Origin: Flavobacteriales bacterium
Lineage (GTDB): Bacteria; Bacteroidota; Bacteroidia; Flavobacteriales; BACL11
Direction: 5' to 3'
DNA length: 33,681 nt
NCBI GenBank assembly: GCA_012960835.1
Contig: DUAL01000030.1
Span: 11,270-44,950 of the forward strand
A program made the translations under genes and the position numbers. The notes under the pieces were generated by a model. That model searched no databases, was not told the DNA's origin, and saw only the letters and a program-made list of their open reading frames with translations. Below, one piece after another: positions 1-15,251 of this stretch (position 1 is the stretch's first letter; every line of letters begins with the position of its first letter).

Positions 1-1595
<1,595 letters not shown>

Positions 1596-1625
1596 TTTAT
1601 TATCAATTTACATTTTCAAAAATAA

Positions 1626-2459
1626 CTATTTCTTTGTGGCTTTTAGCATTCTATTCTTATCGTTTATATCTTTTTTTAACGCTATATCAACAAAACCTAT
1701 TTTTCGTAGCATTTCCAAAATTTCATTCCCGTATTTTTCATTAATTTCAAAATATAATTTACCCTTACAATTTAAGGATTTTGCTGCTAATTCCCCAATT
1801 TTTTTGTAAAATAATAAGGGATTATTATCCGCTACAAAAAGGGCTAAATTGGGTTCGTATTCTAAAACATTATCAAGCATCAATTCCTTTTCAGACTCCA
1901 AAACATAAGGAGGATTACTTACAATTACATCCACTTTTGGTAAAGTAGTTGTTTTTAAGAGATCTTGCCTAAAAAAGTTGATTTCTACTCCATTTATTTT
2001 TGCGTTTTCTTTAGCGACTACTAAAGCATCTTCTGATACATCAATTGCAGAAATTATAGCATTCGTATTTTTAGCAAGTACTATAGGAATACAGCCACTA
2101 CCTGTTCCTATATCTAGTGCAGAAGAAAATTCTTTTTTTAATATCCAATCTACCAATTCTTCCGTTTCTGGTCTTGGAATTAAAGTATGCTCATTTACTA
2201 TGAATTTTAATCCGTAAAACTCTGTTTCACCTAAGATGTATTGTACTGGTTTATTTGTTTTTAAAGCTGCAATAATCTGCTTAAATCTATCCGATAATGA
2301 AGTAGTAATTTGCTTCTCTGCATGAATGATACAATCCGAACGATTATATTCCAAACAATGCTCAATACTAATATATGCCCAAGAAATAATTTCACGCTCA
2401 TCAGCAATGCCACTCAGTTGCTTAATAAAATACGGTATTATATTGCTGACTTTTTCCAC
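1626..2459 (-). CDS. prmC: Release factor glutamine N5-methyltransferase PrmC/HemK
   Basis: PVQYILG, LIPRPETEEL, LDIGTGSGCI and VSNPPY motifs; GTG start at 2459. Confidence 0.96.
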   Translation of the reverse strand: MEKVSNIIPYFIKQLSGIADEREIISWAYISIEHCLEYNRSDCIIHAEKQITTSLSDRFKQIIAALKTNKPVQYILGETEFYGLKFIVNEHTLIPRPETEELVDWILKKEFSSALDIGTGSGCIPIVLAKNTNAIISAIDVSEDALVVAKENAKINGVEINFFRQDLLKTTTLPKVDVIVSNPPYVLESEKELMLDNVLEYEPNLALFVADNNPLLFYKKIGELAAKSLNCKGKLYFEINEKYGNEILEMLRKIGFVDIALKKDINDKNRMLKATKK

Positions 2460-2463
2460 AGGA

Positions 2464-2489
2464 CAAATGTAATAATTTGGCTATTTTTG
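2464..2489. promoter_or_regulatory. Back-to-back Bacteroidota -7 promoter boxes for prmC and ribD
   Basis: TACATTTG on - (2471-2464) and TATTTTTG on + (2482-2489) both match TAnnTTTG; each lies 4 nt before its start codon. Confidence 0.7.
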
Positions 2490-2493
2490 AGCC

Positions 2494-3972
2494 ATGCAAA
2501 ATGGGGAGATTTTCATGAAAAGATGTATTGAGTTGGCCAACAAAGCAATGGGCTATGCATCTCCAAACCCTATGGTGGGTTCAGTTATTGTTTATGAAGG
2601 TAAAATAATTGGAGAAGGCTATCATGAAAACTATGGAAAATCACATGCTGAAGTGAATGCAATTGCTAGTGTAAAAGACAAAAGTTTACTTCCTAAATCT
2701 ACCCTTTATGTCAATTTAGAACCATGTGCTCATTTCGGAAAAACACCTCCCTGTTCCGACCTAATAATAGAACATAAAATACCAAAAGTTGTTATCGGAT
2801 GTGTCGACTCTTTTTCTGAGGTTGCTGGAAAAGGGATAGCAAAAATGGAAAATGCAGGGATTGAGGTTATTGTTGGCGTTCTAGAAAAAGAAAGCAGAGC
2901 ATTAAACAAACGATTCTTTACTTTTCATGAAAAGGAAAGACCCTACATCATATTGAAATGGGCGGAAAGCAATGATGGATTTATTGCTCCTAAAAATCAA
3001 ACAGCACCTTTTTGGATGACTTCTAGTGAATCAAAGAAATTAGTGCACCAATGGAGAGCAGAAGAAGACGCTATTTTAGTAGGAAGAATTACTGCTAAAA
3101 AGGACAATCCTTCCCTAACAGTTAGAGAAGTTGAAGGAAAAAACCCTGTAAGAATTGTAATAGACAAAGATTTAAAACTTTCTGATGAATTGAATCTGTT
3201 TGATAGTGATTCAAAAACAATTGTTTTTAATGCAATAAAAACAGAAGAAATTGACTCAAATTATTTTATAAAAATTCCCCTTAACAATTTGATTGAAAAT
3301 ATATTAAGTGAATTATATAAACAAAACATTCAGTCAATAATTATTGAAGGAGGAACTATTACTTTACAGTCCTTTATTGATAAAAATATCTGGGATGAAG
3401 CTAGAATTTTTGCAACCAACAAAACATTAGTTGAAGGAGTAAAAGCACCCACTATTGATGGAGAAATTATTTCAGAAGAAGAAATTGAAGGGGATAAACT
3501 TACTTATTACAAATCAATTTCTTCAGTAGAAAAAATTTGGAAAGACTTTATTTCTGAAAATCATCAATACTATAAACTTAAAACTCCCGAATCATTCTTC
3601 TTTTGTGATAATAAGAAAGATGCAGATGAGTGTGCTGAATTGGTTTTAAACAGAATAAAACAAGCTACTGCAGGATCATTATGGTCCTATAAAAAACACA
3701 ATACTGATTTTCCCAAAAAAGGAGATTTATTTATTATAACAGATTGGAAGGGAAATGCAAAAGCAATTATAAAAACTACAAATATAAAGCAAATTCCCTT
3801 TAATCAGATTACTCCTGAATTTGCAAAAACAGAAGGGGAAGGAGATAAATCCCTTTCTTATTGGAAAAAAGTCCATTGGGATTTTTTTTCGAGAGAAATG
3901 GAAGAATATGGAGAAAAACCAAGTGAAGATATGATAATCATATGTGAATACTTTAAAATCTTATATGTATAA
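2494..3972 (+). CDS. ribD: Riboflavin biosynthesis deaminase/reductase RibD fused to a C-terminal ASCH domain
   Basis: aa 1-~340: PNPMVG, HAE, EPCAHFGKTPPC (Zn deaminase), KWAESNDG, DNPSLTVR, IEGG (reductase). aa ~341-492: ADECAELVLNRIKQATA, PKKGD, FAKTEGEGDKSLSYW, typical of EF3133/YhfF-like ASCH proteins. No stop between the two parts. Confidence 0.92.
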   Translation: MQNGEIFMKRCIELANKAMGYASPNPMVGSVIVYEGKIIGEGYHENYGKSHAEVNAIASVKDKSLLPKSTLYVNLEPCAHFGKTPPCSDLIIEHKIPKVVIGCVDSFSEVAGKGIAKMENAGIEVIVGVLEKESRALNKRFFTFHEKERPYIILKWAESNDGFIAPKNQTAPFWMTSSESKKLVHQWRAEEDAILVGRITAKKDNPSLTVREVEGKNPVRIVIDKDLKLSDELNLFDSDSKTIVFNAIKTEEIDSNYFIKIPLNNLIENILSELYKQNIQSIIIEGGTITLQSFIDKNIWDEARIFATNKTLVEGVKAPTIDGEIISEEEIEGDKLTYYKSISSVEKIWKDFISENHQYYKLKTPESFFFCDNKKDADECAELVLNRIKQATAGSLWSYKKHNTDFPKKGDLFIITDWKGNAKAIIKTTNIKQIPFNQITPEFAKTEGEGDKSLSYWKKVHWDFFSREMEEYGEKPSEDMIIICEYFKILYV

Positions 3973-4828
3973 CATAATCTACACCATACTCCTATTCAAC
4001 ATTTTAATAATTACATTTAAAATGTTCAAAAAATACAAAGTTGATAATTTACAAGCGTTAATTGTAAACTACTTAACTGCAGCAATATGTTCTTACTTCT
4101 TTTTAGAACAAGATTTTTCATTAAATTATGTAGTAAATTCTGAATGGTTATATCATGCAATGATTATTGGAACACTATTTATTGTTGTATTTAATTTTTA
4201 CGCTTTTGGAACCCAAAAAGTAGGAATAGCAGTTACGACAGTAGCAAATAAAATGTCCTTAATTATTCCAGTTTGTGCAGCACTTATTTTATATCCAGAA
4301 GAAAACACCTTTGATGCATTAAAAGGAGTTGCATTTTTCTTAGCTCTTGCCGGTATTTATTTATCCTCAACAAGAGGAGGTAAACTAAGTTTTGATAAAA
4401 AATATTTATGGTTAATTATATTGGTATTTGTTGGACAGGGAATTTCTGATTCTATATTTAATGATTTCGCGCAACAATTTCCTGATGAAGGAGGGTATTT
4501 ATTCTTTATGGTATTGTTTTTTATGGCAAGTATTAGTGGAATACTAATATTATCGGCTAAATCTGTTAGAAGCAAAAATCCACTTCAGATAAGGAGTCTG
4601 TTTTGGGGAATCGTTTTTGGAGTCCCTAATTTCTTTTCTTTAGTATTTTTTCTGAAAGCACTTGGAGATCCTAAACTTACAAGTTCAATAGTATTTCCAT
4701 TAGTAAGTATGGGGGTTGTTGTTAGTTCCTCAGTAATTGGATTATTTTTATTTAAAGAAAATTTAACTAGAAATAATTGGATTGGAATTATTCTATCTAT
4801 CTGTGCAATTTACATTTTTACTTATTAA
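3965..4828 (+). CDS. EamA/DMT family transporter
   Basis: About 10 hydrophobic segments in two EamA-like halves (ANKMSLIIPV; FKENLTRNNWIGI). The probable start is ATG 3965, overlapping the ribD stop. Confidence 0.85.
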   Translation: MYNIIYTILLFNILIITFKMFKKYKVDNLQALIVNYLTAAICSYFFLEQDFSLNYVVNSEWLYHAMIIGTLFIVVFNFYAFGTQKVGIAVTTVANKMSLIIPVCAALILYPEENTFDALKGVAFFLALAGIYLSSTRGGKLSFDKKYLWLIILVFVGQGISDSIFNDFAQQFPDEGGYLFFMVLFFMASISGILILSAKSVRSKNPLQIRSLFWGIVFGVPNFFSLVFFLKALGDPKLTSSIVFPLVSMGVVVSSSVIGLFLFKENLTRNNWIGIILSICAIYIFTY

Positions 4829-9562: not shown

Positions 9563-9755
9563 ACCGTTTTATCCAGAAACGATTCAGTTTTGTTTCATTC
9601 AGCAGGTCTTCTGACTTGGTCCTTTTGGAGTTGGCCTTCCCATTTATTAAACAGTGGCACATGTAGTTCCCAAAAATTTACGGACTTTACAGCTTCTGGT
9701 AAAGTTGAGGATTCACGCCCCATTCCCTTTTACACCATAATGATGTACTAAACTT
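9563..9755 (-). promoter_or_regulatory. Cobalamin riboswitch with P13 expression hairpin
   Basis: Minus strand: AAAAGGGAA, GTGAATCC T-loop, GCTGTAA, GCCACTG...TGGGAAGGC, B12 box AAGTCAGAAGACCTGC. L5 CCAG (9699-9696) is complementary to L13 CTGG (9576-9573). Confidence 0.93.
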
Positions 9756-9759
9756 AGGG

Positions 9760-9767
9760 CAAAGATA
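9760..9767 (-). promoter_or_regulatory. -7 promoter box for the riboswitch-btuB transcript
   Basis: TATCTTTG on the - strand immediately before riboswitch P1. Confidence 0.75.
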
Positions 9768-15177: not shown

Positions 15178-15251
15178 TGACTCTGGAGGGAGTCGAACCC
15201 CCAACCTCCTGATCCGTAGTCAGGTGCTCTATCCAATTAAGCTACAGAGCC
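15178..15251 (-). tRNA. tRNA-Arg (ACG), CCA not encoded
   Basis: GGCTCTG/CAGAGTC acceptor stem, anticodon arm CCTGA-CTACGGA-TCAGG, GGTTCGACTCC T-arm; TATCTTTG box at 15273-15266. Confidence 0.96.

Follow-up and report, generated by a model that had tools for sequence, protein, structure and literature searches.

Introduction

Proteins of the ASCH family share a beta-barrel core, and one of them, Escherichia coli YqfB (9kyf, 9kyh), is an N4-acetylcytidine (ac4C) amidohydrolase in which alanine mutants of Lys21, Thr24, Arg26 and Glu74 are reported to lose activity, the Arg26Ala protein being inactive (PMC6972931). A preprint describes an octapeptide motif of the family, GxKxx[E/T/S]xR, the binding of nucleic acids by ASCH proteins, and the deacetylation in vitro of ac4C in tRNA by all 19 of the 19 ASCH proteins assayed (10.64898/2026.02.27.708502); according to its text, motif variants that end without the arginine were left out, and neither YhfF nor EF3133 is mentioned there. 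The branch of the family that includes YhfF and EF3133 is widespread, with 3654 matches at E <= 0.001 in a representative library. For two members, crystal structures have been available since 2004 and 2011, and we found no function assigned to them. Here, we describe a module of this branch that is joined in frame to the riboflavin biosynthesis protein RibD in a stretch of DNA of 33,681 nucleotides from a Flavobacteriales bacterium (assembly GCA_012960835.1, contig DUAL01000030.1, positions 11,270 to 44,950), hereafter the window.

Gene fusions have previously revealed hidden steps and damage-control enzymes of vitamin pathways. For riboflavin the precedent is COG3236, an N-glycosidase of the RibX/YbiA type that occurs as an extra hydrolase domain on riboflavin enzymes and is frequently fused to, or clustered with, rib genes (PMC4921024). 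The protein described here likewise carries an extra, candidate hydrolase domain on a riboflavin enzyme; COG3236, however, is not homologous to ASCH, and its frequent association with rib genes is missing for the ASCH type found in the window. RibD-ASCH does not appear in the text or in one supplement of the 2016 survey of vitamin-pathway fusions (PMC4921024). A literature search, with InterPro architectures and protein cluster tables outside its scope, returned no paper describing it, in agreement with an earlier reading of the window made from its letters alone (the sequence-only reading). RibD-ASCH is a new architecture made from two known domains.

Results

A complete RibD continues in frame into an ASCH module

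A single open reading frame (ORF; 2494..3972, Table 1) encodes a protein of 492 residues and its stop codon. Residues 8-313 match TIGR00326, the RibD equivalog of NCBIfam, with 291.4 bits (cut-off 156.35), the Pfam domains dCMP_cyt_deam_1 (PF00383) and RibD_C (PF01872) follow one another in the order of RibD, and the carboxyl-terminal part contains an ASCH domain (PF04266) that scores 79.9 bits against a gathering cut-off of 21.2. The claim of the sequence-only reading that RibD runs in frame into a complete ASCH domain is borne out by these matches. The zinc-motif residues of the deaminase, HAE and PC...C, are legible in the translation. A scan of the fusion protein against Pfam and NCBIfam yielded nothing beyond deaminase-type families, RibD_C and ASCH, with no homology to COG3236, and NCBIfam gave no name to the ASCH part. 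An alternative start, the ATG at 2515, is the one used in four of the fused relatives described below (P0001-P0004, 485 residues).

In nucleotide alignments, fused and unfused alleles of ribD are collinear up to the codons of a GDxL motif and again from the ATG of the downstream EamA-type gene. The unfused relatives part from the fused ones directly after GDxL and end 6-7 codons further on, and the fused form has no linker. This collinearity on both sides indicates that the insert is an ASCH reading frame minus its first few codons, and that it stands in place of about six codons at the 3' end of ribD. Compared with canonical RibD proteins of the same genus (335-345 residues), the window protein is an ordinary RibD from residue 1 to about residue 338, and its gene has the same neighbours (prmC, EamA and UPF0029), whereas its last six or so residues are replaced and 154 more are added. 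The EamA ATG (3965-3967) overlaps the stop codon of the fusion (ATGTATAA), and the unfused relatives that were compared show the same overlap with plain ribD. From residue 266 to residue 383 the frame contains no ATG, GTG or TTG codon, which upholds and extends the earlier remark that no in-frame ATG lies near the junction; the whole ASCH module can therefore be made only as part of RibD. The G+C content at third codon positions (GC3) is 0.20 in the ASCH part and 0.21 in RibD.

An AlphaFold model of the full-length protein shows a strand at residues 334-340 followed by a helix at residues 344-355. This model was built on a 60-row alignment in which the RibD rows were all close relatives, and it was rejected as a guide to domain arrangement, with a mean predicted local distance difference test score (pLDDT) of 64.6, a predicted template-modelling score (pTM) of 0.45, and residues 172-310 mostly below a pLDDT of 50.

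The fusion is present in independent assemblies

The window belongs to a metagenome-assembled genome (MAG; G000) that consists of 343 contigs and is 96.2% complete with 5.7% contamination. An assembly or sequencing artefact that joined two genes might be suspected from this fragmentation, and from a second, unfused ribD 3' fragment on another contig of the same MAG (C87). Metagenome contigs of four public runs, each from a different study, were aligned to window positions 2300-4300; one of the runs, X1, may be the source sample. Contigs bridge the junction in 4/4 runs with 0-3 differences and no indels listed (X1, 3398-3611; X2, 3303-3741; X3, 3370-3536; X4, 3364-3998), and the same frame is found in seven other sequences, at identities down to 72%. 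Misassembly is ruled out by these contigs, and we regard the chance that any artefact created the fusion as negligible. Neither of two concerns raised at the outset, a stop or misassembly at the junction and a fusion unique to this contig, materialised: the four runs cross the junction, and five metagenome clusters and two further genomes carry the fusion.

The same alignments contain loose contig ends at 3355 and 3970 whose sequence is that of an ordinary unfused ribD end; fused and unfused alleles therefore coexist in the same samples. Contig depth was lower over ASCH than over RibD in all four runs, a measure that cannot rank the parts of a gene. Two RNA runs (X19 and X20) contained 6-7% of the sampled words.

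The sole complete ribD found in G000 is the fused one, and this MAG also encodes a normal GTP cyclohydrolase II and a lumazine synthase. No second ASCH was found in it. The unfused 3' end on C87 (L011, G000:C87:1-1146) is 69% identical over residues 286-336 and is followed by the same EamA gene, which suggests that the bin contains a second strain or is contaminated.

Fold and conserved residues of the ASCH module

The ASCH part is similar over its full length to EF3133 (1t62) and to a Lactobacillus crispatus ASCH protein (3s9x), including the N-terminal helix and the EGEGD residues, and belongs with them by sequence (E 5.2e-24 and 8.5e-29, respectively) and by fold. An AlphaFold (AF2) model of the module, built on 115 relatives, had a pLDDT of 92.3. 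Comparison of this model with solved structures by VIA-align gave Z scores of 21.9 for 3s9x, 20.3 for 1t62 and 13.2 for the YqfB-ac4C structure 9kyh_B, the last with a root-mean-square deviation of 2.0 over 100/103 residues, and Foldseek agreed. The fold is a PUA-like beta-barrel whose top structural matches are all ASCH proteins, and at the level of the fold the likeness to YqfB anticipated by the sequence-only reading is confirmed. EF3133 and 3s9x are free proteins of about 150-165 residues, whereas the window module lacks a start codon of its own and is joined to RibD. Relative to YqfB, with which it shares the barrel core and the aligned Lys, Thr and Glu, it is about 20% identical, has an extra N-terminal helix and a 6-residue insert after the Thr, and lacks an equivalent of Arg26.

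The sequence-only reading had aligned K389, T392 and E447 by eye with the Lys21/Thr24/Glu74 triad of YqfB. The residue numbers are exact (NRIKQAT begins at 386 and TEGEGD at 446), and a MAFFT alignment places the YqfB residues on the same three positions, which hold K in 115, T in 114 and E in 115 of the 115 relatives. The invariant K, T and E and the EGEGD residues are retained in 8/8 fused copies, and this pattern of invariant polar residues resembles a small-molecule active site. An hhalign comparison of the ASCH alignment with YqfB was weak (E 0.14), covered the C-terminal half only and supports the Glu alone, and a profile search of the PDB sequences with the ASCH-family alignment did not reach YqfB.

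The position of Arg26, two residues past the Thr, is occupied by Gly in the window (G394), and across the 115 relatives the column contains T (84), G (11), S (9), A (6), P (4) and I (1), with no Arg. Of the octapeptide GxKxx[E/T/S]xR, the window protein retains the K and T but has R for the first G and G for the last R. The first of these two differences had been remarked upon in the sequence-only reading; Arg387 is indeed present, but it is ordinary variation and not special, since the position is G in only 88/115 relatives and K, N, D, R or E in the others. The fused relatives in genome G069 and cluster P0005 have Gly there.

YhfF-type proteins of Bacteroidota also contain three invariant or nearly invariant cysteines, at about window residues 371, 380 and 484 (in FCDN, DxCA and CE.F). 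All three are missing from EF3133, and the third is missing from the L. crispatus protein.

Distribution, origin and selection

Of 8000 relatives scored against the whole protein, the best 120 include five clusters (P0001-P0005) that contain all of the domains, at 74-89% identity and lengths of 485-492 residues; the other 115 are plain RibDs of 334-345 residues, the closest of which shares 93% identity across the RibD portion. The ASCH part was found in 1/41 relative genomes, namely G000 itself, and in 4/68 genomes of the family; the remaining 64/68 gave no match to the window ASCH. In 7/8 other genomes of the genus ribD is plain. Genome G069 has an open frame of 493 residues with the same junction, and in G070 the contig begins within ribD and the frame is open through the junction. 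A further genome, G043 (L016, G043:C48, ribD 1539-2609 (-)), encodes a RibD of 357 residues that keeps the first ASCH codons and then suffers a frame-breaking internal deletion of about 330-370 nt, the last 70 or so nucleotides of ASCH remaining before the EamA start; this is a documented loss of the fusion by deletion. All copies of the locus share one gene order: a prmC-like gene (-), ribD, the gene for an EamA-type membrane protein, and that for a UPF0029 protein. The occurrence of the fusion is limited to a single family of marine Flavobacteriales-type MAGs, within which it is polymorphic.

In an 86-row tree of ASCH sequences (8 fused and 78 others), the eight fused ASCH parts form one group (1 change, SH-aLRT 94), and the closest stand-alone relatives are at most 65% identical. 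In a 130-row tree of RibD residues 8-300, by comparison, the fused label requires 6 changes, of which at least 3 are forced by well-supported branches, and the window RibD is 96% identical to an unfused protein, P0010, over these residues. The combination of one ASCH origin with fused RibDs scattered among unfused ones marks the ASCH part as an accessory module that recombines or is repeatedly lost; the trees point to a single origin, after which the 3' end was transferred by homologous recombination, the module was lost repeatedly, or both occurred. The locus offers a clean natural case of an essential gene with a domain-sized presence/absence polymorphism, which travels between strains with the 3' end of the gene.

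The ratio of nonsynonymous to synonymous substitution rates (dN/dS) between G000 and G069 is 0.205 for ASCH and 0.132 for RibD, and two other ASCH pairs gave 0.26-0.27. The ASCH part is under purifying selection (dN/dS of about 0.2-0.27).

One apparent stand-alone relative, P0128 (158 residues, 86% identity, annotated as an ASCH domain-containing protein), was rejected as a contig-edge artefact. Everything past its first residue lies within the L014 and L017 frames (1-612); both frames are already open at base 1, within ribD, and the annotated first residue of P0128, M, sits over an ATA codon.

Neighbours and fusion partners of this ASCH type

The genomic neighbourhoods of the ASCH type were surveyed with one genome per species, and the best 80 of 475 confirmed ASCH stretches were kept. 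Two of these were fused forms and 78 were stand-alone, of which L065 was set aside for want of a called ASCH ORF, leaving 77 loci. A ribD gene lay within 4 kb of 1/78 stand-alone homologues (L051, on the opposite strand). Pfam was applied to 146 of the 287 nearest ORFs, at 40/77 loci (L019-L059, with L039 excluded because its coordinates match those of L038), and identified riboflavin genes in 0/146. The neighbours were mixed, and their sole recurring theme was GNAT acetyltransferase (6 loci); a local GNAT profile matched in the flanks of 8/77 stand-alone loci, with 5 of the matches within 300 nt or fused.

This ASCH type is fused to at least a dozen unrelated enzyme families, GNAT acetyltransferases foremost. 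The partners comprise GNAT (in both domain orders), S-adenosylmethionine-dependent methyltransferase, APH-type kinase, GFA, glyoxalase (VOC), rhodanese, AHSA1 (SRPBCC), SnoaL/DUF4440, DUF2007, VF530, NlpC/P60, TPR and flavin mononucleotide (FMN) reductase. RibD was the partner in 0/41 multi-domain representatives, and no second RibD-ASCH architecture was present among the best 150 of the 3654 representative matches (query residues 250-492). Recurrent clustering or fusion with riboflavin genes of the COG3236 kind was not found (1/78, 0/41 and a single origin).

The GNAT-ASCH, FMN reductase-ASCH and VF530-ASCH fusions carry the same ASCH subfamily, at 40-62% identity, as a compact module at one end. 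GNAT is found as the partner in several independent arrangements, whereas RibD-ASCH arose once. The GNAT-ASCH pairs (L056 3989-4993, L057 3476-4465, P0121-P0123, P0296, P0330, P0337, P0343 and P0356), whether fused or adjacent, span different GNAT subfamilies and look like writer/eraser-style pairs. The only other flavin-related partner seen was that of P0125 (327 residues), in which an NADPH-dependent FMN reductase/flavodoxin-like domain is joined to the same ASCH type (52% identical).

Discussion

The reading that we favour, with a probability of roughly 0.55, is that the ASCH module is an independent YqfB-like N-acyl amidohydrolase, an optional passenger that gains only co-expression from ribD. 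A near-complete stand-alone ASCH gene of the YhfF/EF3133 type would have taken the place of about six codons at the 3' end of ribD, up to the point at which the next gene starts in overlap. The RibD part would carry out the deamination and reduction that RibD ordinarily contributes to riboflavin synthesis, as its family membership suggests, and the ASCH part would be expressed and translated with RibD and act on its own. In catalysis, Lys389 and Glu447 would probably serve as base and acid while Thr392 activates water. The targets would be small molecules, nucleoside-like or other, that carry an N-acylated amino group, and the best single guess at a substrate may be free ac4C-type compounds imported from outside. 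The module would probably move between related strains by homologous recombination in ribD, or be lost repeatedly, and would not be a step of the riboflavin pathway.

Several observations weigh against this proposal. The literature yielded no assay of any ASCH protein of the YhfF/EF3133 type, and the equivalence of the triad to that of YqfB is based on alignments that include a weak one (hhalign E 0.14). The position of Arg26 is never Arg in the 115 relatives, while the Arg26Ala mutant of YqfB is inactive (PMC6972931); catalysis may therefore differ or be absent. The ac4C writers TmcAL (PF05636) and TmcA (PF13718) were not found in the 96% complete G000, which makes ac4C in the organism's own tRNA an unlikely substrate. 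Additionally, the fusion is in frame and linker-free across lineages that are 72% identical in ASCH, and one would expect a mere passenger to have separated or decayed more often. The FMN reductase partner in P0125 is a faint second link to flavins.

Of the alternatives, a functionless or decaying passenger, in which the ASCH part is a neutral accident that contributes nothing, would explain the patchy presence of the module and the lineage in which only a deletion remnant is left. We consider it unlikely, given an ASCH dN/dS of 0.2-0.27, the retention of the invariant residues in every fused copy, and a GC3 that matches the host. The riboflavin pathway offers a role that we find harder still to credit, namely that ASCH deacylates or deformylates an N-acylated amino- or diaminopyrimidine on or beside the pathway and passes the product to the attached RibD. 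Its substrate would be the 5-formylamino precursor AFRPP or N-acylated 5-amino-6-ribitylaminouracil, and its purpose supply or damage control. The proposal draws on the in-frame, linker-free and selected state of the fusion, on the known chemistry of ASCH proteins, which is N-acyl hydrolysis on the exocyclic amine of a pyrimidine nucleoside, and on the second flavin-related partner in P0125. Some bacterial lineages have a formamidase step on AFRPP, and the formamidase BrbF reportedly interacts with enzymes of the pathway (PMC9478397); damage-control domains on riboflavin enzymes have a precedent in COG3236 (PMC4921024). BrbF, however, belongs to the creatininase family and is unrelated to ASCH (PMC9478397), and the GTP cyclohydrolase II of G000 is normal, so that no formamidase is needed. 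The related suggestion of the sequence-only reading, that ASCH proofreads riboflavin intermediates, is not supported by the surroundings of the stand-alone homologues, where ribD is near one of 78 and riboflavin genes are absent from the 146 neighbour ORFs scanned. It also fits poorly with a fusion that is present in 4/68 genomes of its family, polymorphic and deleted in G043, while most relatives keep the same ribD without the module and the fusion partners of the ASCH type are numerous and unrelated. Were such a role true, ASCH would be a non-homologous functional analogue of the creatininase-type formamidases ArfB/BrbF or of the COG3236 domain, and it would provide the first substrate class for the whole YhfF-type ASCH family.

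The sequence-only reading had also raised the possibility of an RNA-binding autoregulatory module. A form of this idea, in which ASCH binds RNA, either to erase ac4C from tRNA or on rib mRNA, and regulates or localises RibD, can point to the nucleic-acid binding of ASCH proteins, to their removal of tRNA ac4C in vitro (10.64898/2026.02.27.708502) and to the fusions of this ASCH type with VF530, which is DNA-binding. We judge it very improbable. No FMN riboswitch or other rib-linked RNA element is present in the window, ribD and the divergent prmC-like gene are only 34 nt apart, the TmcA and TmcAL families were not found in G000, and the invariant polar residues look like a small-molecule active site.

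To return to the favoured reading of an independent amidohydrolase, the RibD fusion is local and optional and is thus a weak clue to what ASCH does. The recurrent partnership with GNAT acetyltransferases is a stronger functional lead than the fusion to RibD and fits the finding that ASCH proteins are deacetylases; it may be the best clue to the substrate of the YhfF type.

Features of the locus and additional observations

The coordinates of the fusion, its parts and its neighbours are collected in Table 1.

Table 1. Positions in the window of the ribD-ASCH gene, its domains and conserved residues, and the flanking genes
Feature	Position	Strand	Remarks
Whole RibD-ASCH ORF	2494..3972	+	492 aa with stop
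Deaminase domain dCMP_cyt_deam_1, residues 2-103	2497..2802	+	Pfam
Reductase domain RibD_C, residues 150-312	2941..3429	+	Pfam
Junction, residues 333-343 (GDKLTYYKSIS)	3490..3522	+	Bridged by metagenome contigs
EF3133/YhfF-type ASCH module with its own N-terminal helix, residues 339-492	3508..3969	+	Pfam, structure, model
Pfam ASCH core, residues 378-490	3625-3963	+	
K389, aligned to YqfB Lys21	3658..3660	+	K in 115/115 relatives
T392, aligned to YqfB Thr24	3667..3669	+	T in 114/115 relatives
G394, at the position of YqfB Arg26, two residues past the Thr	3673..3675	+	Never Arg
E447, aligned to YqfB Glu74	3832..3834	+	E in 115/115 relatives
Downstream EamA/DMT membrane protein gene	3965..4828	+	Pfam EamA
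Divergent PrmC-type methyltransferase gene, conserved upstream neighbour	1626..2459	-	

The EamA/DMT gene, to whose product NCBIfam gave no name, starts within the last ribD codons, and it could encode a flavin-related transporter that is translationally coupled to ribD. The riboflavin importer RibN belongs to the EamA/DMT superfamily. Elsewhere in the window, and unrelated to the fusion, are a cobalamin riboswitch (81.2 bits) at 9584-9767 (-) and a tRNA gene at 15178-15251 (-).

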